Source of the DNA: Candidatus Latescibacterota bacterium
GTDB taxonomy: Bacteria > Latescibacterota > UBA2968 > UBA8231
Reading direction: 5' to 3'
DNA length: 64,000 bases
NCBI GenBank assembly: GCA_965243025.1
Contig: CBDETY010000003.1
Coordinates: forward strand, 4,800,001-4,864,000
The translations under genes and the position numbers were made by a program. Shown here piece by piece: positions 21,969 to 47,657 of this stretch (its first letter is position 1; each line of letters opens with the position of its first letter). The notes below the pieces were generated by a model, which saw nothing but the letters and a program-made list of their open reading frames with translations, was not told the origin of the DNA and made no database searches.

Positions 21969-22022
21969 TGCATTCTTCTCCCGGTTCGAGCCGCTTGCTT
22001 CCCGCGGCGGCCGGTTTCGAGG

Positions 22023-30052: not shown

Positions 30053-30301
30053 GGGATTTCCCTAAAACTAAGAGAAAACCGGGAATGGCTTGTTCCAGCC
30101 GGCCGCGGCGACACGCCGAAGGCCGGCTTCAAGAGTAACCCTGCCGCAGGCGGCAGCCCCGATCAAGGGTTGCGGGGGCAATCGACGCCGCAGGCGAGGC
30201 TTTGCAGATTCTCCCCGGGATCGACGGCGCGGATGTCCGAACCGGGTCGTCAACTTCCGTGTGAGCAAGTTGCCACATCCTACCGAAAGAGCGAACAAAG
30301 T

Positions 30302-31018
30302 ATGAGCGTTACGCGAGCCGACATCTCCGGCAGCCTTGCGGCCATGGCCCTGAAACCCGGGAACCGGGTGATGGTCCACAGCTCCCTGTCGAGCATGGGC
30401 CACGTCGAGGGCGGAGCCGCAACAGTGGTACAGGCGTTCCTGGACGTTCTGGGGCCGGAAGGCACCCTGATGGTGCCGACCTTCACCCATAGCGACTGCG
30501 AGTACTTCGATCCGCTGAAGTCCCCCTCGCTCAACGGGGCCGTCACCGAAGCGGCCCGGCGGTTCCCCGGAGCGGTCCGGAGCCTCCACCCGACCCACGC
30601 GGTAACGGCCATCGGTCCGGATGCCGAAAGCCTGGTCGACGACGACCTGAACCGCGGCCCCCTCGGCAGGGACTGCGCCCTGGACCGCCTGATCAGAAAC
30701 GGGGGTTACGTCTTCCTCCTCGGGGTGGATCACACCTCGAACTCGGCGATCCACATCGGCGAGGACTACGCCGGGGCGGACCGCCACGGGATGTTCTCAC
30801 CGGAGAACCCGAAGGTCGTGGCCCTGAACCATCCCGAGCTTGGCGAAATGGAGATAACCCTGACGGAGATGATGGGCTCCACGGTCGCCTTCAAACGCAT
30901 GGAAGAGGTGTTGCGCGGACGCGGCCAGATCGTCGACGGAACGATCGGCAAGGCAAACTGCCAGCTGATGAAAGGAGCGGATATCCTGGGGGCGACTTCG
31001 GATATCCTGCTGCACTGA
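30302..31018 (+). CDS. AAC(3)/YokD family N-acetyltransferase
   Basis: VMVHSSLSSMG.V.GG, GTLMVPTFT, RSLHPTHA and LLGV...NSAIH..E motifs. Confidence 0.9.
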   Translation: MSVTRADISGSLAAMALKPGNRVMVHSSLSSMGHVEGGAATVVQAFLDVLGPEGTLMVPTFTHSDCEYFDPLKSPSLNGAVTEAARRFPGAVRSLHPTHAVTAIGPDAESLVDDDLNRGPLGRDCALDRLIRNGGYVFLLGVDHTSNSAIHIGEDYAGADRHGMFSPENPKVVALNHPELGEMEITLTEMMGSTVAFKRMEEVLRGRGQIVDGTIGKANCQLMKGADILGATSDILLH

Positions 31019-33617: not shown

Positions 33618-35698
33618 TCCAGGCTCGAATGGAAGGATGCCGGATCCCCAGGAATGACGGCGGTGCCGCCGAAACCGCGGGTCTCGTACTCGTCACCGGT
33701 CAGATTTCGTACGTGCAGGCGGATGCGGGCGCCCCCGACACGATACCCCAGGGCGGCGTCGACGGTGAATGCGGGGTCGATCCGGTAGCCGTTGTCGGGG
33801 GCGATGTACTGGCCGCTGACGTAGCGCGCCCCGAGGGCGGCCTCGAGGCCGAGTACTGTGCGAACAGAACTCCAGAGGTTGAGGATATGAGCCGGGGCGA
33901 AAGCGGGAACGTTGCCGGCCCGGTCGGCGAATTCGTACTCGCCGGTGAGTGTCGGCACGAACTCGGTGAACGCCGTCAGCTCGGGGTCGGCAAAGGCGTA
34001 GGCTGCGAGGAAATACCAGCGCCGGGACGGCTGTCCCGCGATTTCGAACTCCAGCCCCCGGGAGCGCTGGGCCCCGTTCTCCTTGACGATCCCGGTCCCG
34101 TCGGGAATGGCGATGTTCTCCTTCTCGAGCAGGTAGGCGGCGGCCGAAGCGCGCACCCTGCCCTGCAGCCACTGGCGGCGGACGCCCGTTTCGAGCTGTC
34201 TGCTCTCCTCGGCCTCGCGCTCGCCGGTTACCTGGGTGGAAGGAGGAGCGAAGGCCCTGCCGGCGCTGGCGTACAGCCGCAGGTCGTCCGTCGCCGACCA
34301 CGTTGCGCCGAGGAAGGGACTGAGCTTGCCGTAACTGCGCTCGCTCTCCGAGATCTCCTCATCGTAGAGGATGCGGTCGAAGCGGAGACCGGCAATCGAT
34401 TCGAGATTCCCGGTGATTGGCGACTGGGCGGCGACGTACGGGGCGAGGACGGTGGACCGGGCTTCGGCGGTCTGCGACTGGACCGGGAAGCCGCTCCCCC
34501 CCGGTTCGACCGGATCGTGGAGATCGATCATTGGCAGCAGCACCGCATCGAGAGTGAAGTCGTCCGTCAGCAGCGCGACCTCCAGGCCGGCAAGCAACCG
34601 GTGCCTGCCCGCGGCCATGACCGCCTCGAGCTGGTTGCCGGTGAAGCGCTGGCGGTCGTCGAGCGACAGCCGGGTGCGCATCACGCCGAGGGAGCCGTCC
34701 TCGCCCGGCAGGACGCCGTTGAGCAGGGTGCCGGCCGACGGCCACTCGAAGTTGGTGAAGTAGAGCTTGTCCCGCAGGGTCAGGCGGTCCGACAGCTTCA
34801 TCTCGCCGTCGAGCCTGAGACGCAGGATCGCCTGCTCGGAGAAGTCGCCGGGTGCCTGGTACGAGCGCGTCCGCGGCACCGGCGCAAGGGCATCTCCCAG
34901 AAGCGGCAGCCCGGAGTCCGGACTGTAGTCGTTGGCGATGTACTCGGCGCTCGCCTCGATGAAGGCGACGTCGCCGAAGCGGACCGCCAAAGCCGGGTTG
35001 ACCGCCCATTCGGAGTATTCCTTGTCGTCGCGGTAGTTGTCCGAGCCGCGCGTCATGGCGTTCAGCCGCAGCGCCACCCGCTCTCCCCGCCTCCAGCCGG
35101 CGTCCGCTGTCGCCCGGTAGCTGCCGTAGCTGCCATAGCTGCCCCCGAGAACCGCGAACGGGCGGCCGGCGAATACCGGTTTCCTGCGGACGACGTTCAC
35201 GGCGCCTGACATCGGCTTGCCGCCGTACAGGAAAGCCCCCGGGCCTTTGAGAACCTCGATGCGGGCGACGTTGTACATCGGGTAGAAGCTGACCTCGGGC
35301 TCGCCGGCGCCGTCGTAGAGGACCATGCCGCTCGACAGCGAGTCGAAGCCGCGCACGACGAAGTAGTCGGAGACTCCAAAGCCGGTCTGCACGTTGACGC
35401 CGCTGACGTTGGCCAGCGCGTCGCCGAGGATCCCGCCGTGCTGGGCCTGGACCAGAGCAGCCGGAACCACCGCGACGGAAGCCGGGGTGTCGCGCAGCGC
35501 CAGAGGCCACCTCGTCACCATCCCGCTCCGCTCCGGAAGGGTGAAGCGCGACCCGGTTACGACCACCTCGCCGGCGGTGTAAGCCGGCGGGTCCGCGGCG
35601 CTTTCGGTTTCGTCGGCGGGGGCCGCCGCCGCGGGGGCAAGCGCGGCCAGGAGCAGGAGCCGGCGCCCCAGGCCCCGGCCTTCAGGTGTAGCGCGCAT
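33602..35698 (-). CDS. TonB-dependent outer-membrane receptor
   Basis: Signal peptide, EVVVTG TonB box, plug motifs (DTPASV, VRGF, RIEVLKGP...LYG...GAVN), C-terminal RNLTGDEY. Confidence 0.92.
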   Translation of the reverse strand: MRATPEGRGLGRRLLLLAALAPAAAAPADETESAADPPAYTAGEVVVTGSRFTLPERSGMVTRWPLALRDTPASVAVVPAALVQAQHGGILGDALANVSGVNVQTGFGVSDYFVVRGFDSLSSGMVLYDGAGEPEVSFYPMYNVARIEVLKGPGAFLYGGKPMSGAVNVVRRKPVFAGRPFAVLGGSYGSYGSYRATADAGWRRGERVALRLNAMTRGSDNYRDDKEYSEWAVNPALAVRFGDVAFIEASAEYIANDYSPDSGLPLLGDALAPVPRTRSYQAPGDFSEQAILRLRLDGEMKLSDRLTLRDKLYFTNFEWPSAGTLLNGVLPGEDGSLGVMRTRLSLDDRQRFTGNQLEAVMAAGRHRLLAGLEVALLTDDFTLDAVLLPMIDLHDPVEPGGSGFPVQSQTAEARSTVLAPYVAAQSPITGNLESIAGLRFDRILYDEEISESERSYGKLSPFLGATWSATDDLRLYASAGRAFAPPSTQVTGEREAEESRQLETGVRRQWLQGRVRASAAAYLLEKENIAIPDGTGIVKENGAQRSRGLEFEIAGQPSRRWYFLAAYAFADPELTAFTEFVPTLTGEYEFADRAGNVPAFAPAHILNLWSSVRTVLGLEAALGARYVSGQYIAPDNGYRIDPAFTVDAALGYRVGGARIRLHVRNLTGDEYETRGFGGTAVIPGDPASFHSSLEWAIQ

Positions 35699-37031
35699 TG
35701 CGGTACCTCGGGTCGTAGAACGCCGGCAGCAGCTGGTCGACGCGCAGCAGGCCGGTGGGGGTGAGGGCGACGGTCGCGTCGTCCCAGGTCAGCATCCCCT
35801 CGTCGCGCAGGACCTCGAGGGGAGCGGCGAAGCGGTCGAGTATGTCGACTCCGTGCTTGTCGGCGAAGTATCCGGTGCTGACCTGTCCCAGCTTCAACTG
35901 CAGGATCAGCTCCCGGGTCAGCCGCTCGCCGGCGTTGGTCGCGAAGGCCCGCGCCAGCGGCAGCCGGTCGTCGGCCAGGTCGCCGAGGTACTGCTCCCAG
36001 GAGGAGGCGTTCTGGTAATGGACGCCCCCCATGTGGGAGAAGGAGGCGACCCCGGCGCCGATCATGTCGCTGCCGCGCCAGAGCGCGTCGCGGTAGACGA
36101 ACGACTGCTCCGTCCCCTTCCTGACGACGGTGTAGGCGCTCGCGCGCTCGTACCCTGCCCGCTCGAAACGGTCGAAGGCGAAGGCGTGCCACTCCCGCTT
36201 GGTCCGCCAGTCGGCGAGGACCATCTCCTCGCGTCCTCCCCCGGCGATCGACTGCGAGTACACGGTGTTGAACGGCAGCTCCATCTGGTAGACGGTGATG
36301 CTGTCGGCCCCGAGGTCGACGGTGCGCTCGACGGTCTCCCTCCAGGACTCCCAGGTCTCGCCGACCATGCCGGCGATCAGGTCGACGTTGATTTGGGCGA
36401 ACCCCTGCGCCGCGATCCAGGGCTGCACGCGGAACACCTCCCGGGTGGTGTGGGCGCGGCCGTTCTCGCGCAGGATGTCGTCGTTCATGTTCTCGACGCC
36501 GAGGCTGAGGCGGGTCACCCCGATCTGCCGGATCGCCCGCAGCTTGGCCTCTGTCAGCGTTCCCGGCTCGCACTCGAAGGCGATCTCGGTTGCCGCGTCC
36601 CAGGGCAGCGCCGCCTTCAGCCGCGCCGCCAGCGCCTCGAGGTGGCGGGCGCTTATGTAGGAAGGGGTGCCACCGCCGAAATAGACGAACCTCAGCTCGC
36701 GGCCGGCGACCCGGGGGGAGCCGGCGTACAGCTCCACCTCGCGCGCCATCGAGTCGAGATACTGCCGGATCTGCGCGGCGTTCTTGTCGACGTAGACGCG
36801 GAAGTAGCAGAACTTGCAGCGCTTGCGGCAGAACGGCACGTGCAAATAGAGGCCGAGGTCGGGAACCTCCGGCGCGGGCCGGGTATCGAGAAGGGCGCGC
36901 GCCGCGGCGACGTCGCTCTCGTTCCAGAACGAGTACGGCGGGTAGTTGGAGACGAAGACGCTGCCTACCTCGGTGTCGGTCAGCAGGTCGTCGAGGCGGG
37001 TGGTCGCCGGTTCCGGGAGGTGGGTGGTCAT
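35682..37031 (-). CDS. HemN-like (class C-type) radical SAM enzyme
   Basis: LYLHVPFCRKRCKFC (CxxxCxxC), YFGGGTPS, ECEPG, RLSLGVE and NVDLIAG motifs. Start at the ATG at 37031 with an ATGA overlap. Confidence 0.9.
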   Translation of the reverse strand: MTTHLPEPATTRLDDLLTDTEVGSVFVSNYPPYSFWNESDVAAARALLDTRPAPEVPDLGLYLHVPFCRKRCKFCYFRVYVDKNAAQIRQYLDSMAREVELYAGSPRVAGRELRFVYFGGGTPSYISARHLEALAARLKAALPWDAATEIAFECEPGTLTEAKLRAIRQIGVTRLSLGVENMNDDILRENGRAHTTREVFRVQPWIAAQGFAQINVDLIAGMVGETWESWRETVERTVDLGADSITVYQMELPFNTVYSQSIAGGGREEMVLADWRTKREWHAFAFDRFERAGYERASAYTVVRKGTEQSFVYRDALWRGSDMIGAGVASFSHMGGVHYQNASSWEQYLGDLADDRLPLARAFATNAGERLTRELILQLKLGQVSTGYFADKHGVDILDRFAAPLEVLRDEGMLTWDDATVALTPTGLLRVDQLLPAFYDPRYRNARYT

Positions 37032-38167
37032 CCTGGGTTTCCGAAGCAGTAGAGCATGCCGTCTTCCGAGCCGATCACCAGTCTGCCCGCGGCCACCGCG
37101 GGAGAGGCGGTGAACGATTCCCCGGTCTCGAACCGCCAGCTCTCGCCGCCGCCGGCGAGGTCGAGGGCGGCCAGCCTGCCGGCGGTGGTGGCGACGAAGA
37201 CGCGCTCGCCGGCGATGACGGGAGAGGAATCGACGCGGGCCCCCGCCGCGTAAGTCCAGCGCACGGTTCCGTCGGCCGCGTCGAGGGCGTGCACCTGCTT
37301 GTCGCGGCCCCCGACGACTACGGTCTCCCCGCTCACCGCCGCCGAGGAGTAGAAGGGGAACTGGCGTTCCGGCGCGTAGCGCCAGGCGAACCGGGCTTCT
37401 TCCAGGTCGACGGCGACCACCTCGTTGTCGAAGGTGCCGGCGACGGCGGTCCCGCCCTCCAGGACCGCGGCGCTTGCAGCAATGTACTGGCCTGCGTGAA
37501 GGCTCGCAGTCTCGACCCCGGAGCGGAGGCCGATGAGTCGCAGCTGTCCGTCGCAGCCGCCGGCGACGGCGAGGGTGCCGGCCACTGCCGGCGAGGCGTG
37601 CACGTAACCCCCGGTCTCGAACTTCCACAGCAGCTCGCCGTCGTCGAGCCCCAGGCAGTACAGGCGGTGGTCGTAGCTGCCGAAAAGGACGCGGCCTTCC
37701 GACAGGTTCGGGGAAGAGGTGACCGCCCCTTCCGCCGCGAAGGTCCAGAGGGCGGCGCCGCTGGTCCGGTCGACGGCGTGGAAGGTTCCGGACTCGTCGC
37801 CGAAGAGCACGGCGTTCCCGTGGACCGCGGGTGAGGATTTCACCTCGCCTGCGGCCTTGTAGGCCCACTCGATGCGGCCGTCGGCGAGGGCGGCGGCGAG
37901 CAGTCGGCCGCCGAGGGTGCCGACGTAAACGGTGCCGCCGCTGATCGCCGCGGTCGACTCGATCCCCCCGCTCCCTCCCCGGGCGGCGCTGTCTCCGTAC
38001 GCCGCGGTATCCAGGGCCCACAGCAGCTCCAGGTCGCCGTCGACGGGGGAAGCGGCGACGCCGGTCAGGCCGGGGCCGCCGCGGAAACTCGGCCAATCGG
38101 ACGAAGCGGCCGCAACCGCGGCGCACGCAGCCAGGACCTGGACCGCCAGGCGCTGAGGAGCCCGCAT
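37028..38167 (-). CDS. Exported PQQ-like beta-propeller repeat protein
   Basis: Signal peptide, WPSFRG, repeated SSP...G..L.A.D...G...W blades. Confidence 0.88.
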   Translation of the reverse strand: MRAPQRLAVQVLAACAAVAAASSDWPSFRGGPGLTGVAASPVDGDLELLWALDTAAYGDSAARGGSGGIESTAAISGGTVYVGTLGGRLLAAALADGRIEWAYKAAGEVKSSPAVHGNAVLFGDESGTFHAVDRTSGAALWTFAAEGAVTSSPNLSEGRVLFGSYDHRLYCLGLDDGELLWKFETGGYVHASPAVAGTLAVAGGCDGQLRLIGLRSGVETASLHAGQYIAASAAVLEGGTAVAGTFDNEVVAVDLEEARFAWRYAPERQFPFYSSAAVSGETVVVGGRDKQVHALDAADGTVRWTYAAGARVDSSPVIAGERVFVATTAGRLAALDLAGGGESWRFETGESFTASPAVAAGRLVIGSEDGMLYCFGNPG

Positions 38168-39303
38168 CAGAAGGCCGCCTCGTACAGGCCCGCGAGCTCC
38201 CGCTCCCCCGCGGGCCGGGGGTTGAAGCCCGCCGTTCTCTGGGACGCGGCCTGGCGCGCGAGATCCGGCAGGGCTGCCGCCTCGACGTCGAGATCGCGCA
38301 GTCGTTCGGGCAGGTCGGCCGCGGCGTTCCAGCCGCGCACGCACTCGGCCAGGGCATCCGCCCCCGCTTTCTCCAGGCCGGCGGCCATGGCCAGCTCGGC
38401 GTAGCGTCCGTCGACCGCGGCGCCGTTGAAGCGGATCACGTGCGGCAGCATCACCCCGACCGCCACTCCGTGGGTGATCCCGTAGCGTGCGGTCAGCGGG
38501 TTGGCGCAGGCGTGGGCGGCCCCCAGCATCGAGTTCTCGATGGCGGCGCCGGCCCAGTGGGCCCCGAGCAGCATGCCGGCGCGCGCCTCGACGGAGCCGC
38601 CGCGCAGGCTTTCGCGCAGGTTGGCCGCCAGCAGCTGCAGCGCGCGGGCGGCGAACATCCGCGAGACCTCGTTGCCGTTGGCGCTGACGAAGCTCTCCAC
38701 GGCGTGCGAAACCGCGTCGACCGCCGCGGCGGCGGCCACCTCCCGCGGCGCCGTCGCGGTCAGCTCGGGATCGAGCAGGGCGGCGCGGAAGCGGGCGCTG
38801 CGGTCGCCGCAGGCCATCTTCATGCCGCTTTCCCCTGCCCCGATCAGGGCGAAGCGCTGCGCCTCGCTGCCGGTCCCCGCGGTGGTGGGGACGCCGATGG
38901 CGGGAAGCAGCGGCTTCTTCGCCTTGCCGTCGCCGCGGTAATCCTCGATGCGGCCGCCGTTGGTCAGCAGGAAGTTGATCCCCTTGGCGCAGTCCATGGC
39001 GCTGCCGCCCCCGAGGGCGACAACGAAGTCCGGAGGCCGCGGCAGCTCCCCGGCGAAGCGGCTTCCGGCCTCGACGTTGCGGCTGCGGGGGTTCTTCTCT
39101 ACCCCGTCGAAGACGGCGTGCTCCAGTCCGGCGGCGGCGAGGGATTCGACGGCCCTGGCGAGGATGCCGGCGGCGGCGATCCCCGGGTCGGTGACCACCA
39201 GAACCCGGCCGGCCCCCAGCTCGGCGGCCAGGCCGCCGAGCCGGACCAGGGCGCCGGCGCCGAACACCAGGCGCGTGCCGCTCTCGTACTCGAACCCCCG
39301 CAT
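38167..39303 (-). CDS. Iron-containing alcohol dehydrogenase
   Basis: LVVTDPG, GGGSAMD, PTTAGTGSE, D..SH, GAAHA and HG metal ligands. Confidence 0.93.
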   Translation of the reverse strand: MRGFEYESGTRLVFGAGALVRLGGLAAELGAGRVLVVTDPGIAAAGILARAVESLAAAGLEHAVFDGVEKNPRSRNVEAGSRFAGELPRPPDFVVALGGGSAMDCAKGINFLLTNGGRIEDYRGDGKAKKPLLPAIGVPTTAGTGSEAQRFALIGAGESGMKMACGDRSARFRAALLDPELTATAPREVAAAAAVDAVSHAVESFVSANGNEVSRMFAARALQLLAANLRESLRGGSVEARAGMLLGAHWAGAAIENSMLGAAHACANPLTARYGITHGVAVGVMLPHVIRFNGAAVDGRYAELAMAAGLEKAGADALAECVRGWNAAADLPERLRDLDVEAAALPDLARQAASQRTAGFNPRPAGERELAGLYEAAF

Positions 39304-40739
39304 CAGGCGCGCTTTCTCATGGTGAACGCCCGCTGCCGGTACAGCAGCTCGAACAGGTTCCCCTCGTGCGGCTGGTCCCAGGCGATCTCGTTCGTCGCCA
39401 CCTCGCCGAAGTTGAGGCGGTCGATCCCGGCGGAGCTCATCAGCTGCGCCCGCAGCTCAGGATCTTCCGTCAGGGCGGTGACCACGAGGGAAGGGCCGAT
39501 CCTTTCCGCCATCTCCTCCGCGGGGGCCTCGACCACGGCGACGAACGGGAACAGGAACTCGGTGTCGGCGAGCGGGTGACCGGGGTCCTCGCACCAGATC
39601 ACCGTCGGACGCAGGAAGGTGCATCCCCCGGCGGTGGCGACGCGGCCGCTGCCCCTGACCGCGGCGGTGAGGTCGACGGCCCCGGGGGTTTCCAGCTCGC
39701 GGTCGATGAAGTCGGAAATCCGCCGCGCCCCCTCCGGGTCGGGGAAGGCGGCGAGGGCAGCGTCGGGATGGTCGAGGGGGAGCGGCTCGATCCCGGCCAA
39801 GTGCCTGGCAAGGGCCTCGGCGATCTCGCGACCGCTGCGGGGAACCCAGACGCCGGAGGCGTTGATGCAGGAACGGCCGCTGTTGTCGGCGACCGAGGAG
39901 AGCAGCAGCGGCAGCGCCTTTTCCCAGTCGCCGGCCGCGTCGCTGCCGATCAGGACCTTGCTGCGTCCAGGGCCGTGAATCTCGACGCGCGGGTCGCCGC
40001 GCCAGGGAGCGACCGTCTCCTCCCCCCCGAACAGCAGCGAGCGGCCGCAGCGGAGCAGCAGCTCCCCGGCGGCGTCGTGTCCTCCCGGGTAGAGGCTGAA
40101 GGCGGCCGGCGGACAGCCGGCGGCGATGAAGGCCTGGGAGATTCGAAAAGGGGTCCACGGCTCCCGGCTGCCCGGCTTGAGCGCCAGCGGAACCTTCAGG
40201 GCCAGGGCCGGCAGCCACAGGGTGTGCACACCCGGGGAGTTGTTGGGCAGCACCGCTCCGAGAACGTCGGAAAGTCGCCGGTAGCTGAGGGTGCGCCCCC
40301 CCTGCTCCCCCCAGCCGCTGTCGATGACCTCGAGGCCGGCGCCGCGCGTCAGCCCGCCGACGATCCGGTCCATCTGCTCGAGGGCGGAGGATATCTTCGC
40401 GGCGTTGCCGCGGCACAGGGTACGGGGCAGCCCGGTGGTGGCCGACAGCTGCGCGACGTACTCCTCGAACGGCTGCACCCGCTCCCCGAGCGGCAGGTCG
40501 GCGCCCGCGAACAGCCCGCCGGCGCGGCGGCAGATGCGCAGCAGCTCTTCCGCCGGCAGGGCAGCCAGCTCCCGCTGCGCGAGGCGGGCCCGGGACAGGT
40601 CGCGGGCGATGAGCCCGGCGTTTGCCTGGGAAACCTCGGCCACCGGCTCGCCGCCGGCCGCGTGCGAGAGGGTTTCCAGCCGCAGGCTGCGGTAGGGCTC
40701 CCCCTGCCTGAGAACGGGTATGTGCACCGGAGCGGTCAC
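39303..40739 (-). CDS. ALDH-fold acyl-adenylate/aryl-carboxylate reductase (EhpG/GriD-like)
   Basis: LPNNSPGVH.LW, LKPGSREPWT, LFGG, HGPGRSK, NSGRSCINAS (catalytic Cys), EFLFP and PHEGNL motifs. GTG start at 40739, just after the EhpF-like stop. Confidence 0.8.
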   Translation of the reverse strand: MTAPVHIPVLRQGEPYRSLRLETLSHAAGGEPVAEVSQANAGLIARDLSRARLAQRELAALPAEELLRICRRAGGLFAGADLPLGERVQPFEEYVAQLSATTGLPRTLCRGNAAKISSALEQMDRIVGGLTRGAGLEVIDSGWGEQGGRTLSYRRLSDVLGAVLPNNSPGVHTLWLPALALKVPLALKPGSREPWTPFRISQAFIAAGCPPAAFSLYPGGHDAAGELLLRCGRSLLFGGEETVAPWRGDPRVEIHGPGRSKVLIGSDAAGDWEKALPLLLSSVADNSGRSCINASGVWVPRSGREIAEALARHLAGIEPLPLDHPDAALAAFPDPEGARRISDFIDRELETPGAVDLTAAVRGSGRVATAGGCTFLRPTVIWCEDPGHPLADTEFLFPFVAVVEAPAEEMAERIGPSLVVTALTEDPELRAQLMSSAGIDRLNFGEVATNEIAWDQPHEGNLFELLYRQRAFTMRKRA

Positions 40740-40744
40740 GGCGG

Positions 40745-41848
40745 TCAGTACACCCCGACGGTCACCGACTCCTGCAGCGACGACAGCAGGCGCACGTTGG
40801 CGACCCCGTCCCAGGGGTATTCGTCGATCGGCCCGGCGCGCTCCCCCTCGTCGCGCTCGAGAAAGCGGGGCATGAAGAACTCCCGGGTGAGGGTGGTCAG
40901 CATGACGCGCCCGGTCTCCCCGCAGGCGACGGTCCGGCTGTGGTCCTCCCGGTCCACGAGCTCGATGACGGCGCGCGGATGCGAGGGGTGGTAGACGATG
41001 TCGTACCCCTGTTCCGGGTCGAAGGGACGGCAGTGCGCCAGGCCCATCAGGGTGTTGCCGTAGGTCGGTACGAAATCGATGCCGGGGACCAGCTCCTCGC
41101 GGGCGAAGCGGTGGAACTGGGCGTCCATCTCGGTGCCGCCGCAGAAGATCCCGGTGATGCCCGCCCTGGGGAGCGAGACCTTCTCGCACAGCGCCTCGAG
41201 CAGCCTCGGGGTCGTGAACAGGCAGCGGACGCTGTCGTGGGCGCGCAGGATCTTCAGCCCCTGATCGACGACGTGGCTCTTGTAGGCCTCGAGCTCCTGG
41301 TGGGCCCGGCGGCGGATCAGGTTGTTGACCCAGCGCGGGTCGAGGTCTACGAAGAAGCAGATCCCTCCGCGCATCTGGGCCAGGCGCTCGACCGCCAGCC
41401 GCAGGCGCCGCGGTCCGGTCGGTCCCAGCATCAGCCAGTCGCCGCCGCTTGGGAACCCCTCCTCGGAAAGCCGCTCGCCGAACTGCCGGTAGTCGATCTC
41501 GAAGTCGCGGATGTTGATGCGGTTCTTGGGAAGGCCGGTCGACCCGCCGGTCTCGAACACGAACACCGGATCGTTGGCGTACGCCCCCGGCACCCACCTG
41601 CGCACCGGCCCGCCGCGCAGCCACTCGTCGCGGAAATGCCCGAGCAGCTTCAGGTCCCCGTAGCCGCCGATCTCGGCCCGGGGGTCGAAGTCGAGGTTTC
41701 CGGCGAACTCGAGCCAGAACGGGCACCCGGTGTCGGGGCCGAAATGCCAGGCCACCATCTCGCGCACGTGGGCGTCGAGCCGCTCCCGGGCCGCCGCTGC
41801 TTTTCTGGCCAGGGAGGCGGGCTGGTCTCCTGCGGGGGCCGCGCTCAT
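40745..41848 (-). CDS. EhpF/GriC-like adenylate-forming enzyme (aryl-carboxylate reductase component)
   Basis: WHF.P.TG.PFWL, FDP, FETGGSTG.PK, PTGP, GG..F.VDLDPRWV, Y..HVVDQ, TTP, GGTE, YG.T, ERD and C-terminal GVY, colinear with my recollection of Pantoea EhpF. Confidence 0.8.
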   Translation of the reverse strand: MSAAPAGDQPASLARKAAAARERLDAHVREMVAWHFGPDTGCPFWLEFAGNLDFDPRAEIGGYGDLKLLGHFRDEWLRGGPVRRWVPGAYANDPVFVFETGGSTGLPKNRINIRDFEIDYRQFGERLSEEGFPSGGDWLMLGPTGPRRLRLAVERLAQMRGGICFFVDLDPRWVNNLIRRRAHQELEAYKSHVVDQGLKILRAHDSVRCLFTTPRLLEALCEKVSLPRAGITGIFCGGTEMDAQFHRFAREELVPGIDFVPTYGNTLMGLAHCRPFDPEQGYDIVYHPSHPRAVIELVDREDHSRTVACGETGRVMLTTLTREFFMPRFLERDEGERAGPIDEYPWDGVANVRLLSSLQESVTVGVY

Positions 41849-42005
41849 CCTTCCCCGAGGCGTCCAGTGCCTGCGCGCGCAAGCAGTACGAAAGAGACCG
41901 CCGAAGCGCCCGGCTCGCGCGGCGTCCAGGTGGGTCGTACCGGGGATGTACGGCCAGCAAAGGCAACGCCGCGGCCGGATTCAGACACAATGACGCCGGC
42001 AGGCA

Positions 42006-43457
42006 CTAGGGCCCTCCGATGGCGAACAGGCGGTTGCGGCTGGCTATGTAGAGGATGCCGCCGGCGGCGACCGGGGTGGTGTACACGGAGCTGCCCATGT
42101 TGATCTCGGCGAGCACCTCGAGCTCGCGCCCCGCCTCGAGGATCGCCACGTCGCCGTCCTCGTCGCCGATGTAGACCTTGCCGTCGGCGACCAGGGCCGA
42201 ACCCCAGATCGCCGCGAAGGCGTCGTACTTCCACTGCACCTCGCCGGTCTCGGCGTCGATGCAGTAGACGAAGCCGCTGAGGTCGGCGAGGTACACCAGG
42301 CCGCCGTGGATGGCCGCGGTCGAAAGGGTGCGGTGAAAGTTCCTGCCCCCGAGGTGCCAGACCGCGGCGGTGGCGGTGACGTCGCCGTTCCCGGTGGCGT
42401 CGATGCACCACAGGTTGCCCACCCCTTCCCCGTGCTCGGGATCCTGGCCGACGCCGATGTAGACGCGGTCCCGGTAAATGACGGGTGTGGAGATGATGGC
42501 GTTGCGGGTCCCTCTGCCCCCCAGCTCCCAGACCGAGTCCTCGGGGTTGCCGTCGAACTTCCACAACAGCCTGCCGGTCGCCGGATCGAGAGCGTAGACC
42601 CAGCCGTCGCCGCCGGGAAAGATCACCTGGGGCCGGCCGGCGATGACCCCGTAGGCCGGGTTCGACCACTGGCCGTGGAGGATGTTCTCCCCCGGAGAGG
42701 CGTCCTCCCACGCCACCTCGCCCGTCCTCTTGTCGACGGCGATGAAGCTCGGGGCGAACGGCGACGGGATGTGGACGTGGCCTTCGTCGACGCCGTTGCC
42801 GGTGATCACGAACAGCAGGTCGCCGGCGGCCACCGGAGAGCAGACCGCGAGGTTGTGGGGGAAGACGTTGAGCTCCTCGATCATGTCGAGCTTCCAGACG
42901 ATGTCGCCGTCGATGCCGCTGGTGTCGGCCTCGTCCCGGTAGGGGCCGTCGTTCTCGCCGTCGCGGAACCCCTCGGTGTCGGCGGCGACGACCTCGCAGC
43001 GGTTGGAGATGTAGTACAGGCGCTCTCCCTCGACGTACGGGGTCGAGCAGACTCCCTGCTGCGGCCAGTCGTTGACCCGCCCCGAGGGCAGCTTGGTGTG
43101 CGTCGACTGCCAAAGGAAGCTGCCGTCGCCGAGGGCGAAGGCGGCGATGACGCCGCGGTCCCCGGTGAGCTTTCCGTTGTACAGCGCCTGGTTGTTGGTG
43201 CCGATGAACACCTTGCCCCCGTGAACGAGGGGGCCGGCGTAGGTCTGGGACCCGAGCTGCGCCGTCCACAGGATCCCCTCCCCGGTTTCCGTGTTCCACG
43301 CTGCAGGCAGGGGACCGGCTTCCACCGTCATGTTGCGGTCCGGGGTGAAGCCGAACATCGCCGTTTCCCCCGCCCCCGCGGGGACGACCGCGGAAGCGAT
43401 CGCCGCCGCGGCCAGGACCGCGCCGGGGAACCGCCGATTTGCGAAGAATCCTGTCAT
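42006..43457 (-). CDS. Exported PQQ-like beta-propeller protein
   Basis: Signal peptide, LW.AQLGSQTY..P, repeated G.V.W blades, QWSNPAY, IGVGQDPEHG. Confidence 0.85.
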   Translation of the reverse strand: MTGFFANRRFPGAVLAAAAIASAVVPAGAGETAMFGFTPDRNMTVEAGPLPAAWNTETGEGILWTAQLGSQTYAGPLVHGGKVFIGTNNQALYNGKLTGDRGVIAAFALGDGSFLWQSTHTKLPSGRVNDWPQQGVCSTPYVEGERLYYISNRCEVVAADTEGFRDGENDGPYRDEADTSGIDGDIVWKLDMIEELNVFPHNLAVCSPVAAGDLLFVITGNGVDEGHVHIPSPFAPSFIAVDKRTGEVAWEDASPGENILHGQWSNPAYGVIAGRPQVIFPGGDGWVYALDPATGRLLWKFDGNPEDSVWELGGRGTRNAIISTPVIYRDRVYIGVGQDPEHGEGVGNLWCIDATGNGDVTATAAVWHLGGRNFHRTLSTAAIHGGLVYLADLSGFVYCIDAETGEVQWKYDAFAAIWGSALVADGKVYIGDEDGDVAILEAGRELEVLAEINMGSSVYTTPVAAGGILYIASRNRLFAIGGP

Positions 43458-43477
43458 CCCTGTTTCCCCCGTGCCCG

Positions 43478-45733
43478 CTACCAGACGCGGACGTTGTCGT
43501 AGAAGATCTCGGCCGCCGAGTACCCGTAGAGCCCCGGACTGCCGCTGCGGTTCGGCAGCGGGTCCTCCGCTTCGATCGTCCAGTCCCGGGGCTCCTCCTC
43601 GCCGCGGCGCCAGACCTTGCCTTTGACGACCGCCCTGTCCGCTTCGACGTCGACCGTCATCCTGACGGTGTACCAGACTTCGGGTTCCCAAGCGAAGTCG
43701 ATGGTCTTCGCCATGCGCAGGTCGGACGCCCAGGAGCGGATCTGCAGGCGCTGGTGATTGCCCATCATGTCGAGGGTGTAGCGGTTGGCGATCAGCCCCA
43801 TGTCTGGGCGGTTGCGCTTCCCCCGGGCGGCCATCATGTCCGCCTGGACGGTGTACCCCGACATCTGCGGCGGACCGAGGTAGACGTTGGAGCGCTGCAG
43901 TCCGCGTTTGGCCAGCGGTTTCGCCAGGACCTTGTTGCCGTCGAGCTCGCGGACGAAGAACTTGCGCGCCGCCCCGATCCAGTGGGAGGGAGCCGCGTTC
44001 TCACCCTCGGCCGCGCTCAGGGACTCGAAGTCCTCGCTCCAGCCGCGTTCGGGGACGACCCGCACGCGGGCGTGCGCGGCCAGCGGCTCGCTCTCATTCC
44101 CGCCGAAACGGATGCTCGCGGTTACGCGGCCGGTCCGGGAAACCTCCGGGGCCGCAGTGAAAAGGGCGGTCTCCACGCCCGCTCCTGTTTCCTCCTCAGC
44201 CTCGATTTCTCCCGCCAGTCCTTCGAGCCGCCAGTCCACCCCCTGCTGGAGGAGGGACTCTTCCGCCAGCGCCCGGCCCGCGTCATCGAAAAGACGGACC
44301 CTGAAGCGCACCGAGTCTCCCGGAGCGAGCAGCACCTCGGCGGGCACGAGCTGAACCGATGCCGGGGGTTTATCCGAAACAGGTACGTCCGTCGAGGCCG
44401 GAGAACCGGACGGGCCGGAGGCCGAAGGACCGCGGAAGGAGTCGCCGAGGCAGAACAGCCCGTCTTCGGTCGTGAAGTAGACGCAGCCCCAGGCGGCCGC
44501 CGGGGAGCCGTATATCTCGAGCGGCCGGCCTTCTTCGGCGGTCAAAAGCTCCTCGTCGAGGAGCAGGCACTCCCCCTCTCCAGGCTGCAGGATCTGGAAC
44601 CTGCCGTTGACGGTGGCGGCGTAGATCCTGCCGTCGGCGGCCACCGGCGAGCCCCTGCCGACAGTGCCGATGTTGCGCTCCCAGAGCAGGGTGCCGTCGC
44701 CGGCGTCGAGGCAGAGCAGGTTGGCGGAGTTGTCGACGACGTACAGCCTGCCGTCGTCGAGCGCCGGCGAGGCGTAGCCGGCCAGGCAGGCGTCGCGGCG
44801 CCAGATCTCCCCGGTGCCGGTCACGTCCCCCGTGCCGGTGGCGTCGATGCAGACGACGCGGCCCATCTCGGTGTTGTCGACGTTCTCCTCGCTGTGGGAT
44901 ACGTAGACCCGGCCGTCTCCGGCGACGACGGAGACGTTGATGCCGCGCTTGCTGAGCCGGAAGCCCCACACCTTCTCTCCGGTGGCGGCGCACAGGGCGT
45001 ATACGGCGCCGTCGGCGTTGCCGGCGATCATCAGCCGCTGACCGCCGATATCGGCGGCCACCGGGGTCGAGTAGGTGGTGTCGAGGGGTCGTCCGCCCGG
45101 AGTCGACACCCAGACAACCTCGCCGCTGTTCTTGTCGAAGGCGAAATACCGGTGCCGGGGCACCGCCTGGTCGCCCCAGCTCGAGTTGAGGAAGGAGATC
45201 ACCACGAGGCCGCCGTCGACGAACGGCGTGTGGGTGCGGCCCCCGTACCCGGAGATGCGGCCGAACTCCTCGGTCAGCGACCGCGACCACAGCAGCTCGC
45301 CGTCGCCGGAGTAGCAGTTGAAGATCCCCTGCACCCCGTGGGCGTAGACGTTGCCGGTTTCGGGATCGCCTGCGAGGCTGGCCCAGCCGACGCGGTTGAA
45401 CGGGATCGTCGTGTGGAAGACGTTGAGGCGGTCCTCCCAGAGCAGGGCGCCGGTGGCGGCGTCGAAGCAGGCGATGCGCTCCTGCTCGGTGATCCCCTCC
45501 CCGACCCGGCCGATGACGTAGACGCGCCCGTTCATGAGGATGGGTGTCGAGCGGCCGACGAACTCCGCGCGCCACAACAGGCCGCTGCCGGACCGGGACC
45601 AGGCCGAAACCAGGCCGGTCTCTGCGGATGCCCCGGTCTGACCGGGGCCCCTCCAGTGGGGCCAGCCGGCGGCCGCCGGCTCCGGACCGGGTCCGGAAAC
45701 GAGGGTGAGTGCTAGGAGAAGGAGAAGAACCAT
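43478..45733 (-). CDS. Exported PQQ-like beta-propeller protein with C-terminal Ig-like and lectin-like domains
   Basis: Signal peptide, WPHWRGP, propeller blades, then VQLVPAEV..PG (Ig-like) and a C-terminal 'GSPGLYG...YDNVRV' domain. Confidence 0.85.
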   Translation of the reverse strand: MVLLLLLALTLVSGPGPEPAAAGWPHWRGPGQTGASAETGLVSAWSRSGSGLLWRAEFVGRSTPILMNGRVYVIGRVGEGITEQERIACFDAATGALLWEDRLNVFHTTIPFNRVGWASLAGDPETGNVYAHGVQGIFNCYSGDGELLWSRSLTEEFGRISGYGGRTHTPFVDGGLVVISFLNSSWGDQAVPRHRYFAFDKNSGEVVWVSTPGGRPLDTTYSTPVAADIGGQRLMIAGNADGAVYALCAATGEKVWGFRLSKRGINVSVVAGDGRVYVSHSEENVDNTEMGRVVCIDATGTGDVTGTGEIWRRDACLAGYASPALDDGRLYVVDNSANLLCLDAGDGTLLWERNIGTVGRGSPVAADGRIYAATVNGRFQILQPGEGECLLLDEELLTAEEGRPLEIYGSPAAAWGCVYFTTEDGLFCLGDSFRGPSASGPSGSPASTDVPVSDKPPASVQLVPAEVLLAPGDSVRFRVRLFDDAGRALAEESLLQQGVDWRLEGLAGEIEAEEETGAGVETALFTAAPEVSRTGRVTASIRFGGNESEPLAAHARVRVVPERGWSEDFESLSAAEGENAAPSHWIGAARKFFVRELDGNKVLAKPLAKRGLQRSNVYLGPPQMSGYTVQADMMAARGKRNRPDMGLIANRYTLDMMGNHQRLQIRSWASDLRMAKTIDFAWEPEVWYTVRMTVDVEADRAVVKGKVWRRGEEEPRDWTIEAEDPLPNRSGSPGLYGYSAAEIFYDNVRVW

Positions 45734-45811: not shown

Positions 45812-46960
45812 TTACCAGTTGGTGTAGGAGCCGTCCAGGCGGCGATACCCCCAGACCGGGCCGTCGTTCTCGACGGGGGGATTGGCCGCAGCGGCCTCTT
45901 CGTCGATCTCCACCCCGAGCCCCGGCCCCTCGGGAACCAGCAGGTGGCCGTCGGCGAAGCCGACCTGGACGGGGAAGACGTCGTTCAGGGCGGTCCCCGG
46001 CTCGCGCGACAGCTCCTGCACCCCGACCAGCGGCGAGGCGAGGCAGAAGTGCAGGCTGGCAGCGGTGCATACAGGTCCGAGGGGATTGTGGGGCACCAGG
46101 GCGACGTAATGGGTCTCGCACCAGCCGGCGACCTTCCTGCCTTCGGTGAGCCCGCCGACGATGCACAGGTCGAGGCGGCAGTAGTCGAGCAGGTCCTCCT
46201 CAAGGACCTCGCGGAACTGCCACTTGCTGGCGAACTGCTCGCCGACCGCAAGCGGAACGCTGGTCTGCTGACGCACCAGGCGCAGGCTGGCGGCGTTCTC
46301 GCTGCGCAGCGGATCCTCGATGAAGAAGGGGCGGTACGGCTCCACCTGGCGGCAGAAGTGGATGGCGTCCGGCGGGTCGAGGCGGGTGTGCACGTCGACG
46401 CAGATCTCGAGCTCCTCACCCAGCTCCTCGCGGACGGCGCGCACCCCTTCGACGGTCCGGCGCACGGCGCGCCCCGGCTCGAACAGCCGCTCTCCCCCCT
46501 CGATGTCGTCGACGGAGAAGCGCACGAACTTCCACCCCGCCTCGGCGCGCGCGCGGCAGCCGGCGACCAGGCTGTCGGTGTCGGCGCCGACGACGTGGGG
46601 ATAGCAGACCACCTTGTCCCTGACGCGGCCGCCCAGGAGCTCGTAGACCGGGACGTTCAGCGCCTTCGCCTTGATGTCCCACAGTGCGATGTCGACGGCG
46701 CTCAGGGCCGCGGTCTGCACCACTCCTCCCGGGAAGAAGCCGCCGCGAAACATCACCTGCCAGAGGTGCTCGATGCGGAACGGATCGGCTCCTGCGAGGT
46801 CGCGCTCGAACGACTTCCAGACCTCGGCCACGGCGGTGACGCGTCGGCCTATGCCGGCCTCGCCGAGACCGTGGATGCCCTCGTCGGTTTCGACCTTGAC
46901 GAAGGAGTAGTTGCGCCCCCCCTCGCTGACCAGGACCGGTTTTATCGCGGTGATCTTCAT
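45812..46960 (-). CDS. Mandelate racemase / galactonate dehydratase-like enolase superfamily enzyme
   Basis: MKITAIK, VKVETDEG..G.GE, DIALWDIKAK...PVYELLGG, DVH, FIEDP, GE and PHNP.GP motifs. Confidence 0.9.
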   Translation of the reverse strand: MKITAIKPVLVSEGGRNYSFVKVETDEGIHGLGEAGIGRRVTAVAEVWKSFERDLAGADPFRIEHLWQVMFRGGFFPGGVVQTAALSAVDIALWDIKAKALNVPVYELLGGRVRDKVVCYPHVVGADTDSLVAGCRARAEAGWKFVRFSVDDIEGGERLFEPGRAVRRTVEGVRAVREELGEELEICVDVHTRLDPPDAIHFCRQVEPYRPFFIEDPLRSENAASLRLVRQQTSVPLAVGEQFASKWQFREVLEEDLLDYCRLDLCIVGGLTEGRKVAGWCETHYVALVPHNPLGPVCTAASLHFCLASPLVGVQELSREPGTALNDVFPVQVGFADGHLLVPEGPGLGVEIDEEAAAANPPVENDGPVWGYRRLDGSYTNW

Positions 46961-47003
46961 CCGTCTCCTCCCCTTCCTGTGGTTTTTCTTGCGGCTTTCC
47001 GTG

Positions 47004-47657
47004 TCAGGAGGCCGTTCGAGTCGGCGCCCCGCGGCCTTTCGCCAGTCCATCCGTCCCCGTCCCGCCCAGCAGCCGCGTCCTCATTTCGTCGAGGGGAAAG
47101 GCGGGGCCCGGGTCGACCTTGCGGTCCGGCGCGATCTCCTCGTGGCCGACGATTTCGACGATTCCGTACTCCGCAATCAGCAGACGACAAAGCTGCCCGA
47201 CGATGTTCAGCTGCGATTCGGGATAGGCCTGCCAGTAAGCCGCCCCGGTCTCGTTGCGGTGCACGGCGCGCACCGTCTCCGCGGCCGGGTAGCTGTCTCC
47301 GAAGTGGGCGAGGTAGCGCCCGTCCCGCGCTTCGAGGCGACCGGCGTTGTCGACCTCGATGCCGAGGGAAAACCGGTTGAGGGCGGTGCGGCCCTTCCAG
47401 GCGCTGACCCCGGCGTGCCAGGCGACCGTATCGAACGGGACCAGCTGCGCGACGGCTCCGTTCCGGGCGACCACGAGGTGTGCGGATACCTTCCGCGCCG
47501 GGTTGGTCAGGGTGGCGATGGCCGCGCCGGCGTCGCGGCACGCGGTGTAGTGAATGACGATGGTGTCGGGGTACCCGGGCTCGAAGGGATCCCCGATGTT
47601 CGGCGATTCGGTGAACTCCACTCCATCCCCCCGCAGCAGGTGGTTTTCTATGTGCAT
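47004..47657 (-). CDS. N-acetylmuramoyl-L-alanine amidase (Amidase_2, AmpD-like)
   Basis: IVIHYTA, VSAH, AWHAG.S.W, N..SLGIE, GHEEIAP.RK.DPGPAF motifs. Confidence 0.93.
   Translation of the reverse strand: MHIENHLLRGDGVEFTESPNIGDPFEPGYPDTIVIHYTACRDAGAAIATLTNPARKVSAHLVVARNGAVAQLVPFDTVAWHAGVSAWKGRTALNRFSLGIEVDNAGRLEARDGRYLAHFGDSYPAAETVRAVHRNETGAAYWQAYPESQLNIVGQLCRLLIAEYGIVEIVGHEEIAPDRKVDPGPAFPLDEMRTRLLGGTGTDGLAKGRGAPTRTAS

Follow-up and report, generated by a model that had tools for sequence, protein, structure and literature searches.

BamB (also known as YfgL) and YxaL are eight-bladed propellers built from PQQ_2 repeats that bind no pyrroloquinoline quinone (PQQ), and BamB uses its propeller face for protein–protein contact. 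The PQQ-dependent alcohol and glucose dehydrogenases are built on a similar propeller repeat, whose D strands contain a docking Trp; a vicinal Cys-Cys disulfide over the cofactor is a feature of methanol dehydrogenase (MDH) and type I alcohol dehydrogenase (ADH). Here we analyzed three genes for PQQ_2 propellers with predicted export signals in the genome of a Candidatus Latescibacterota bacterium (assembly GCA_965243025.1, contig CBDETY010000003.1, positions 4,800,001 to 4,864,000; this stretch of 64,000 nt is referred to as the window, and coordinates are those of the window). We named them PropA (37028–38167), PropB (42006–43457), and PropC (43478–45733), and called a fourth propeller found in related loci PropD-type. 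We take their products to form the extracytoplasmic part of a system of some 17 genes that is conserved across several phyla. With slightly better than even confidence, we read them as one propeller complex in the periplasm, whose role would be to bind or process a halogenated aromatic glycoside that is secreted.

For the enzymes of the system, the closest described counterparts come from the D-alanylgriseoluteic acid phenazine pathway of Pantoea agglomerans, with EhpF, a truncated ANL enzyme of this griseoluteic-acid route, and EhpG. The locus resembles that pathway in combining a truncated ANL enzyme and an adjoining aldehyde dehydrogenase (ALDH) with a subsequent alcohol-forming step. It differs in that phenazine genes are missing from the window and the operon of the pair also encodes a halogenase, a radical S-adenosylmethionine (rSAM) enzyme, and transporters, along with the exported propellers. 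In chemical logic, the system also resembles the Bmp5/Bmp6-type bromophenol pathways and the engineered gastrodin route (chorismate lyase, carboxylate reductase, ADH, and glycosyltransferase). Common to this logic are 4-hydroxybenzoate derived from chorismate, halogenation of a phenol, conversion of an acid to a benzyl alcohol, and glycosylation; our system is set apart by its exported propellers, which these routes are not known to have, and by the missing chorismate-lyase link in the Planctomycetota carriers examined. For EhpF and EhpG, our literature search yielded only gene tables, in one of which ehpF adjoins the ALDH gene ehpG (PMC11278526).

A type of cluster named 'Halo_AMP', consisting of a flavin halogenase plus an AMP-binding enzyme, has been reported from sponge microbiomes (10.64898/2026.08.03.742642). 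PQQ-like domains are frequent in these clusters, which also contain glycosyltransferase, thioesterase, rSAM, ABC, and TonB genes and have hosts in the Acidobacteriota, Latescibacterota, and Poribacteria (10.64898/2026.08.03.742642). This preprint assigns the PQQ-like domain no function and the clusters no product, its focus being another type, CC A with P450s. Our locus falls within the Halo_AMP definition: a halogenase gene (31061–32314) adjoins a gene for a PaaK-like ligase (32307–33617), and an EhpF-like gene is also in the cluster. The related loci described below came largely from the same phyla as the Halo_AMP clusters. In our literature search, we found no description of the role of these propellers. 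Secreted PQQ_2 propellers are among the commonest unannotatable proteins in the Planctomycetota, Acidobacteriota, Latescibacterota, Poribacteria, and their relatives, and a label such as 'BamB-like, function unknown' can here be replaced by a testable hypothesis. This would also give natural-product discovery an entry point to an orphan cluster with many carriers among sponge symbionts.

Conserved gene order and co-inheritance

The three propeller genes are real open reading frames on the minus strand, encoding proteins of 379 (PropA), 483 (PropB), and 751 (PropC) amino acids. They belong to a run of seven consecutive minus-strand genes (35682–45733) in which third-position GC changes frame exactly at the gene borders; the G+C content across the cluster was 66–73%. 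PropC and PropB are followed by genes for an EhpF-like truncated ANL adenylating enzyme of the arylcarboxylate-reductase type (40745–41848, 367 aa), a divergent, EhpG-like partner of the ALDH family (39303–40739), and an iron-containing alcohol dehydrogenase (Fe-ADH) without a signal peptide (38167–39303). PropA and a HemN-like rSAM enzyme of the class C type (35682–37031) complete the run.

Gene order was assessed in 80 loci around PropB homologues (one genome per species), with the window proteins as tblastn queries and a match defined as covering more than half of the query; many of these loci stop at contig ends. At least six phyla were represented among these loci, which came from Gemmatimonadota, Poribacteria, Latescibacterota, KSB1, Calditrichota, Acidobacteriota, and Planctomycetota and from one Cytophagia-labelled bin. 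PropC was matched in 76 loci, upstream of PropB, the EhpF-like enzyme in 64 (median identity 73%), PropA in 51, the ALDH in 47, the Fe-ADH in 43, and the rSAM enzyme in 30. The order PropC, PropB, EhpF-like, ALDH, Fe-ADH, PropA, rSAM, all on the same strand, recurred among them. Where the flank was long enough, the genes for the PaaK-like ligase, halogenase, TonB-dependent receptor (TBDR), sodium:solute symporter (SSS), GT4 glycosyltransferase, thioesterase, and ABC/FtsX proteins recurred as well, and the extended gene set was also present in four Planctomycetota loci (L015, L016, L018, and L051).

These results bear on several claims of an earlier, sequence-only reading of the window. Its three exported propellers interleaved with cytoplasmic enzymes were found as described, the latter being the EhpF-like enzyme, ALDH, Fe-ADH, and rSAM enzyme, and the TBDR and SSS genes that it named recurred in the cluster across loci. 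The propellers were indeed syntenic with the enzymes, but the biosynthetic operon that it had described is not continuous, being interrupted once by a plus-strand gene for an AAC(3)-type acetyltransferase (approximately 30275–31018; Pfam Antibiotic_NAT, 168.8 bits). This gene lies between the halogenase gene and the DUF3311 and SSS genes, dividing the cluster into two transcription units, and no counterpart of it was seen among the 80 loci.

We then examined the distribution of the genes in 168 genomes of the window's phylum and in an even sample of 121 Planctomycetota. In the window's phylum, PropB (E-value of 1e-60 or better) was found in 97 genomes and the EhpF-like enzyme in 98. The two carrier sets were identical save for one genome (G068, 84% complete) with only an EhpF fragment, and the tallies per family and genus were otherwise equal. 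In one genus (g24; 15 genomes, G045–G059), a distance of approximately 450 kb to 1.2 Mb separates the two genes on closed contigs, but neither was missing from any of the genomes; the FtsX gene is near the EhpF half of the split cluster. The FtsX permease was present in 96 of the 97 PropB carriers (absent from G166), in several of them more than 1 Mb away from PropB; it was also matched in G068 and in six other genomes at just 32–40% identity.

The same pattern was observed in the Planctomycetota. There, 22 genomes carried a PropB-type gene, and all 21 genomes with an EhpF-like gene (at least 52% identity) were among them. The exception, G260, had PropB only, near a contig end. Three Planctomycetota genomes without PropB had just distant EhpF-like genes (35–38% identity). 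Five Acidobacteriota loci lacked an EhpF-like gene beside PropB, and a reduced, EhpF-less version of the cluster was considered for this phylum; it was rejected, as the gene was found elsewhere in all five genomes (61–66% identity). Because the pattern was seen in two phyla and in unlinked arrangements, it favors a functional tie over hitch-hiking, and argues for the propellers being clients of the enzyme set. The link between propellers and biosynthetic genes drawn in the sequence-only reading is thus supported well beyond the window. In two phyla, almost complete co-inheritance connects the PropB family with a defined set of enzymes; the family also has a conserved putative pocket and a predicted partner, as described below.

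Fold, conserved face, and predicted partners of the propellers

All three propellers matched PQQ_2 well above the Pfam cut-off of 27.6 bits (PropA 137.1, PropB 101.8, and PropC 105.7 bits), and PropA also matched Beta-prop_ACSF4 (182.5 bits, cut-off 133). Their N-termini are signal-peptide-like, with best 12-residue Kyte–Doolittle values of 2.35 (PropA), 2.58 (PropB), and 3.17 (PropC), compared to 0.12–1.71 for the interleaved cytoplasmic enzymes; the proteins are hence called exported, which is a prediction. Scores against the PQQ-dehydrogenase model TIGR03075 were low (71.2, 46.1, and 26.3 bits for PropA, PropB, and PropC, respectively; cut-off 480.05), as were those against TIGR03074 (at most 33 bits, cut-off 832.65). 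No adjacent Cys-Cys pair was present in the three translations. Judged by these low scores and the lack of a vicinal Cys pair, none of the three propellers is a conventional quinoprotein, in agreement with the earlier remark that no quinoprotein ADH or glucose dehydrogenase signature could be seen. A look-up with a PropB homologue returned only PQQ_2-named clusters.

The lack of pqqA–E genes noted for the window extends further for two of them. PqqC had no match in the source genome (G000, 96% complete), and PqqE had none over the cut-off there (best 57.5 bits versus 381), the PqqE-like matches being ordinary radical SAM proteins; PqqA, PqqB, and PqqD were not searched. PqqC over the cut-off was found in none of the 168 genomes of the phylum and in none of five carriers from other phyla, in a search without a positive control, as the gene was also detected in none of 14 control genomes. 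Uptake of external PQQ would be compatible with this lack of PqqC matches. Importantly, as PQQ_2 repeats generally need no PQQ (BamB and YxaL being examples), lacking pqq genes are not evidence for a new cofactor.

The AlphaFold2 (AF2) model of PropB, built from a 56-sequence alignment, had a predicted local distance difference test (pLDDT) value of 87.3, and DSSP delineated eight four-stranded blades, as in 8-bladed PQQ_2 propellers; this blade count is that of PropB. The propeller repeat of the window proteins shares the docking Trp of the D strands with that of the PQQ-dependent dehydrogenases. The nearest solved folds according to Foldseek were BamB (TMt 0.72–0.81; E-values of 1e-23 to 1e-20), designed 'Cake' propellers, tetrathionate hydrolase, and YxaL; no PQQ dehydrogenase was among the 48 matches listed. 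At the sequence level, the PDB match of PropB to BamB spans just residues 361–482, and PropB has long conserved polar loop inserts that do not align to BamB.

The propellers might accordingly be general envelope assembly factors of the BamB kind, with no functional link to the metabolic genes around them. In addition to the solved folds, the top NCBIfam match of PropA was BamB (TIGR03300, 161.7 bits). However, all three proteins scored below the cut-off of this model (285.2 bits; PropB reached 74.1 and PropC 57.4 bits). PropB is missing from 71 of the 168 genomes of the phylum and so cannot be a housekeeping factor like BamB, and the near-identity of the PropB and EhpF-like carrier sets in two phyla, even with the genes hundreds of kilobases apart, contradicts a chance neighborhood. 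We regard this explanation as highly improbable.

PropB homologues are numerous: more than 8000 were scored, with 54–76% identity across phyla, and the best 120 (68–99% identity) were labelled Latescibacterota, Gemmatimonadota, or Poribacteria where labelled. Among 56 homologues, 80 columns of PropB were invariant. These columns were unevenly distributed over the DSSP elements, making up 47% of BC loops, 29% of DA loops, 21% of CD loops, 13% of strands, and 6% of AB loops. By propeller convention, BC and DA loops make up one face. Among the invariant residues in these loops, Asp, Glu, His, Asn, Gln, Trp, Lys, and Arg prevail; they include K122, D130-W131-P132, Q134, H201-N202, D224-E225, H227, H261, W264, Q338-D339-P340-E341, E344, R376, W418, and E433-D434. 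A 25-residue insert in blade 2 bears an acidic loop of the DGENDG type. The cysteines of PropB were not invariant: C137 was present in at least 90% of the sequences, and C154 and C206 were variable. The number of residues conserved in at least 95% of sequences was 117 of 483 for PropB, 52 of 379 for PropA, and 74 of 751 for PropC.

Based on its model and invariant columns, PropB is likely the ligand-binding or catalytic core of the module, with a putative polar pocket. Propellers of the CylK type, which displace halides, would be an attractive analogy. It had earlier been proposed, from polar and Cys-containing inserts, that this protein carries an active site and is not a scaffold. The motifs are present, and within them the acidic residues and the His, Asn, and Gln residues do not vary among the 56 homologues (H201, N202, D224, E225, H227, Q338, D339, E341, and E344), unlike the cysteines; the polar face is strongly conserved, but the fusions to sensor proteins described below fit ligand binding as well as an active site.

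PropA is an exported BamB-like propeller, and a BamB-like trait is its use of a face as a predicted protein–protein interface. In complex predictions of the mature proteins, the PropB–PropA pair scored 0.80 (0.79–0.81 between runs), whereas the best control scored 0.01. In a benchmark, the 0.80 mark was attained by 116 of 157 solved complexes and by two of 215 mismatched pairs, a comparison that is only roughly valid here, as our own alignments were used. Contacts agreed by at least 83% between runs, and the pLDDT of the partners was at least 91. The predicted interface of PropA is its conserved face (Y165, Y188, H190, C205, Y228, F270-P271, Y273, and R288). Because this face forms the predicted interface with PropB, PropA looks like a docking partner of PropB rather than a second enzyme.

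In PropC, a propeller of the 8-blade PQQ_2 type (approximately residues 24–430) is followed by an Ig-like domain and a jelly-roll resembling the ConA and CBM66 lectin folds (residues 440–751). The AF2 model of the last 312 residues, with a pLDDT of 91.5, showed the Ig-like domain and then the concanavalin-like jelly-roll. For this C-terminal part, Foldseek returned CBM66 (TMt 0.67), the lectin domain of galactocerebrosidase, and GH16 and GH43 sandwiches.

Several PropB-type domains were found fused to other domains. P0128 joins PropC and PropB; clusters P0129 and P0130 (1243–1252 aa) are of the same length but were not aligned. P0131 (874 aa) joins PropB and PropA, which is not explicable by read-through because the two genes are not neighbors in the operon, and P0150 joins PropB and a TonB receptor. 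In many further proteins, namely BlaR1-like M56 proteins, WD40-repeat Ser/Thr kinases, HEAT-repeat proteins, and a caspase-like peptidase, the C-terminal part is a PropB-type domain, in some cases with a PropA-type domain after it. Of 15 fusions examined, 14 retain 66–78 of the 80 PropB invariants, and P0138 retains 50. That BlaR1-like and kinase proteins have the same putative pocket in their outer domain is as compatible with ligand binding as with catalysis.

A further fused protein, P0127 (1636 aa), is a eukprot record, from a collection of eukaryotes, in which a photolyase-related PF04244 domain occurs along with two domains of the PropB type (41% and 37% identity). It has 66 of the 80 invariants in the one domain aligned, and could reflect contamination or real transfer.

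The sequence-only reading had proposed that the cluster makes a PQQ-like redox cofactor, which is exported and loaded on three propeller apo-enzymes. A new aromatic (quinone-type) redox cofactor of this kind, bound tightly or covalently by PropB, would yield a periplasmic holoenzyme in PQQ-less organisms. The occurrence of PropB and the pathway enzymes in nearly the same genomes regardless of linkage would fit, as would the polar, conserved, His- and Trp-rich face of PropB and the PqqC counts given above. Precedents exist in heme d1, which is held by the eight-bladed NirS, NirF, and NirN, in the glycosylated cofactor mycofactocin, and in the cysteine and tryptophan tryptophylquinone (CTQ/TTQ) systems, in which a radical SAM enzyme acts along with a flavoprotein and an ABC exporter; 4-hydroxybenzyl alcohols are able to form quinone methides. 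However, no cytochrome c, cupredoxin, or ferredoxin domain was found in any cluster gene scanned, and nothing in the locus indicates a redox cofactor. Halogenation, glycosylation, and a TonB receptor typify secreted metabolites and not known cofactor pathways, and the enzymes read as tailoring of a small aromatic. The lack of a vicinal Cys pair, the variable cysteines, and the presence of the same pocket on BlaR1-like M56 and kinase proteins also speak against a cofactor, and the idea of three separate apo-enzymes fares no better, with PropA resembling a docking partner and PropC a lectin carrier.

We consider such a cofactor very unlikely. Little credence is likewise given to a more specific version, in which PropB-type propellers are the apo-proteins of an extracytoplasmic prosthetic group, a halogenated hydroxybenzyl (quinone-methide-forming) glycoside that the co-inherited enzymes (EhpF-like, halogenase, rSAM, and GT4) would make and that would be loaded in the periplasm with the help of PropA, PropC, and the FtsX system. 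If this version were true, the BlaR1-like and kinase fusions would be sensors built on the cofactor or tuned to the molecule, and a PQQ-independent 'quinoprotein-like' system would extend across at least six phyla; a ligand that proved to be a prosthetic group would define a new cofactor class. The checks proposed with the cofactor idea came out in its favor, in that PropB and EhpF-like genes were correlated in phylogenetic profiles, the PropB face was conserved, and PqqC was absent, but these outcomes do not separate a cofactor from a ligand, substrate, or product.

Enzymes, transporters, and the proposed pathway

The EhpF-like enzyme matched the PDB structures of EhpF (3L2K and 3HGU) with an E-value of 5e-41, residues 24–357 aligning to residues 20–355 of the 366-residue chain. 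Like EhpF, it is an ANL enzyme without the C-terminal subdomain. Its plasmid relatives (36–38% identity) are annotated as 'arylcarboxylate reductase' or 'phenazine biosynthesis protein'. The ALDH gene (Pfam Aldedh, 63.3 bits) follows directly, as it does in 47 of the 80 loci; matches to PDB ALDHs had E-values of 2e-14 and weaker. The ALDH is proposed to reduce the activated acid, its EhpG likeness being one of family and adjacency. The Fe-ADH matched Pfam Fe-ADH (153.5 bits) and ADH_Fe_C (128.1 bits), and scored 271.8 with the NCBIfam model ErcA (cut-off 550). Together, the EhpF-like/ALDH pair and the Fe-ADH suggest the conversion of an acid to an aldehyde and then to an alcohol.

The rSAM enzyme has a CxxxCxxC motif at residue 68 and a HemN_C domain (Radical_SAM, 78.9 bits), and scored below all NCBIfam equivalogs (HutW 181.8 versus 400). 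The NCBIfam scan also yielded no equivalog for the three propellers, the ALDH, or the Fe-ADH. GxGxxG and WxWxIP are hallmarks of flavin-dependent halogenases. The halogenase has GGGPAG at residue 12 and WFWYIP at residue 218, and matched Trp_halogenase (PF04820) with 97.3 bits (cut-off 21). It reached no equivalog: the scores were 178 versus 900 for CmlS, 131.6 versus 240 for QhpG, and 102.6 versus 400 for LodB. The adjoining PaaK-like aryl/arylacetate-CoA ligase has an AMP-binding_C_2 domain and scored 239 and 208 bits with PaaK models, below their cut-offs.

The remaining genes of the cluster are likewise on the minus strand. The TBDR (33602–35698) has a plug and a barrel and belongs to the siderophore-receptor subfamily, barely passing TIGR01783 (224.2 versus 223.5 bits). 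A small DUF3311 membrane protein (29825–30052; 34.2 bits), seen in five loci, precedes the SSS (28356–29996; Pfam SSF, 143.4 bits). The GT4 glycosyltransferase (26991–28322; Glycos_transf_1, 77.7 bits) recurs in the Planctomycetota and other phyla. It is followed by a 156-aa multi-pass membrane protein (26524–26994) that had no family match in the Pfam and NCBIfam scans and has homologues in two related loci (69% identity in L045 and 36% in L018). The thioesterase is of the 4HBT/YbgC type (26095–26517; Pfam 4HBT_2 and 4HBT; TIGR00051, 63.1 versus a cut-off of 68.7). The last two genes encode a LolD/MacB-type ABC ATPase (25382–26098; ABC_tran, 116.7 bits; LolD, 247.9 versus an equivalog cut-off of 307.75) and a 1124-aa FtsX-type permease (22023–25397) in which Pfam FtsX matched two stretches. 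An FtsX-domain permease and a LolD/MacB-like ATPase together constitute a type VII (MacB/LolCDE/FtsEX-like) ABC system. Such systems work on the periplasmic side, and for this reason we did not assign the inner-membrane export step to it; of the earlier claim that the cofactor leaves through the FtsX-type system, the co-occurrence is supported and the export role is left unassigned. The 156-aa membrane protein is instead a candidate for the inner-membrane transfer of the product.

The halogenase, EhpF/ALDH reductase, Fe-ADH, GT4 enzyme, and thioesterase together read as a set for tailoring a small aromatic metabolite. A lead to its precursor came from a chorismate-pyruvate-lyase-like gene (PF01947, 34.5 bits) located 13 bp upstream of a PropD-type gene in the source genome (G000:C3:5915585–5917414, L088:5286–7127). 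This pair is approximately 1.05 Mb from the main cluster, so that a fourth propeller is encoded away from the operon. Within the phylum, 35 of the 168 genomes have the chorismate-lyase-like gene, and every one of these 35 also has PropB; the gene is inside the cluster in L027, G162, and G037. It points to 4-hydroxybenzoate as the acid, a lead confined to this phylum.

From these data, we infer a pathway for the complex that we favor. The starting compound would be an aromatic carboxylic acid, with an acid of the 4-hydroxybenzoate type being the most plausible, either made by the chorismate-lyase-like enzyme in carriers that have it or imported via the TBDR and SSS; carriers without the chorismate-lyase-like gene may import the acid in this way or make it by another route. 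The PaaK-like ligase would activate the acid, the WxWxIP flavin halogenase would halogenate it, and the HemN-like rSAM enzyme would modify the halogenated acid at carbon. The EhpF-like/ALDH pair would then convert the carboxylate to an aldehyde, the Fe-ADH would convert the aldehyde to a benzyl-type alcohol, and the GT4 enzyme would glycosylate the alcohol product. Outside the cytoplasm, the putative PropB pocket, with its Asp, Glu, His, Asn, and Trp residues, would bind or transform the product, PropA would dock onto PropB via its own conserved face, and PropC could retain the sugar through its lectin-like domain. The FtsX-type ABC machine and the TonB receptor would be functional partners of the propeller complex. 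The complex may bind, transform, or sense the product, or carry it as a cofactor.

The same transporters and ligases allow a reading in the opposite direction, in which the TBDR and propellers capture and process an external aromatic or glycosidic compound, the SSS imports a fragment, the Fe-ADH and ALDH oxidize an alcohol to the aldehyde and on to the acid, and the ligases make CoA esters for degradation. The TBDR, SSS with DUF3311, PaaK-like ligase, and 4HBT thioesterase resemble those of phenylacetate-type catabolism; the lectin-like domain of PropC and a TBDR from a receptor subfamily for small chelates would suit uptake as well. On the other side, the halogenase, GT4 enzyme, HemN-like rSAM enzyme, and EhpF-type enzyme (whose characterized relative is biosynthetic) are biosynthetic in character, some versions of the cluster include a chorismate-lyase-like gene, and no ring-cleavage or β-oxidation genes were seen in it. 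We consider uptake and catabolism unlikely.

The TBDR also raises the question of a metallophore-like shuttle, in which the secreted product binds a metal, returns via the TBDR, and is received by the acidic, His-rich PropB complex; this overlaps with the binding of a secreted glycoside. The score of the TBDR for the siderophore-receptor model, the PropB–TBDR fusion P0150, and the joint presence of export and import genes in the cluster are consistent with a shuttle, and TonB transporters usually mark metallophore clusters (10.64898/2026.08.03.742642). The cluster has, however, no nonribosomal peptide synthetase, no NRPS-independent siderophore (NIS) synthetase, and no catechol- or hydroxamate-forming enzyme, nor was a siderophore-type periplasmic binding protein or ABC importer seen, and the TBDR was present within the examined flank in just eight of the 80 loci. 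A metallophore role thus appears quite unlikely to us.

Several points weigh against the secreted-glycoside complex that we prefer. The product, the ligand, and the activity of every component are predictions from the genes, and the ALDH, Fe-ADH, CoA ligase, thioesterase, and importers would fit a catabolic route equally well. The single cavity of PropB is deduced from loop topology in a model and not from measured distances, and the PropB–PropA score is the predictor's own confidence, built on our own alignments. The fusions are metagenome gene calls, and an apparent fusion of the adjacent PropC and PropB genes could stem from the loss of a stop codon. As the genomes are related and hence not independent, the co-occurrence counts exceed the number of independent events. 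Finally, the chorismate-lyase-like gene was absent from 62 of the 97 carriers in the phylum with the query used, and was found in only one of the 121 Planctomycetota, a genome without PropB; PF01947 was matched in none of five PropB-carrying planctomycetes, compared to three of 14 control genomes.

Flanking and unlinked genes

In many loci, a fourth propeller gene of the PropD type follows the rSAM gene. It is missing from the window, and three copies are located elsewhere in the genome. Besides the copy paired with the chorismate-lyase-like gene, these are L086 and L087 (G000:C3:4541466–4542665 and 5673498–5674640). One of the two is divergent from a TonB receptor with CarboxypepD_reg, and the other adjoins genes for LTXXQ/Spy-like periplasmic and ankyrin-repeat proteins.

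Directly after the FtsX permease gene is a gene for a DrrA-type ABC ATPase (20979–22022, minus strand). It is probably part of a separate ABC-2 transporter, and had nine matches in the 80 loci with a median identity of just 28%. An open reading frame at 30068–30787 is spurious, an artefact of the frame opposite the plus-strand acetyltransferase gene.

Upstream of PropC, the minus strand encodes an MR/MLE enzyme of the galactonate-dehydratase type (45812–47050; 319 bits, cut-off 311), an Amidase_2 N-acetylmuramoyl-L-alanine amidase (47004–47657), and a CMAS-type cyclopropane-fatty-acid synthase (48427–49728). None of these genes was conserved beside the cluster. The MR/MLE dehydratase was considered as a cluster member and rejected, since it was matched in seven of the 80 loci, mostly on the opposite strand and at 32–35% identity. 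Further away, a gene on the plus strand (approximately 60222–61988) and one next to the chorismate-lyase-like/PropD pair (L088:7285–9180) belong to a family of 631-aa proteins without a Pfam match that has at least 15 paralogues in the genome (32–48% identity).

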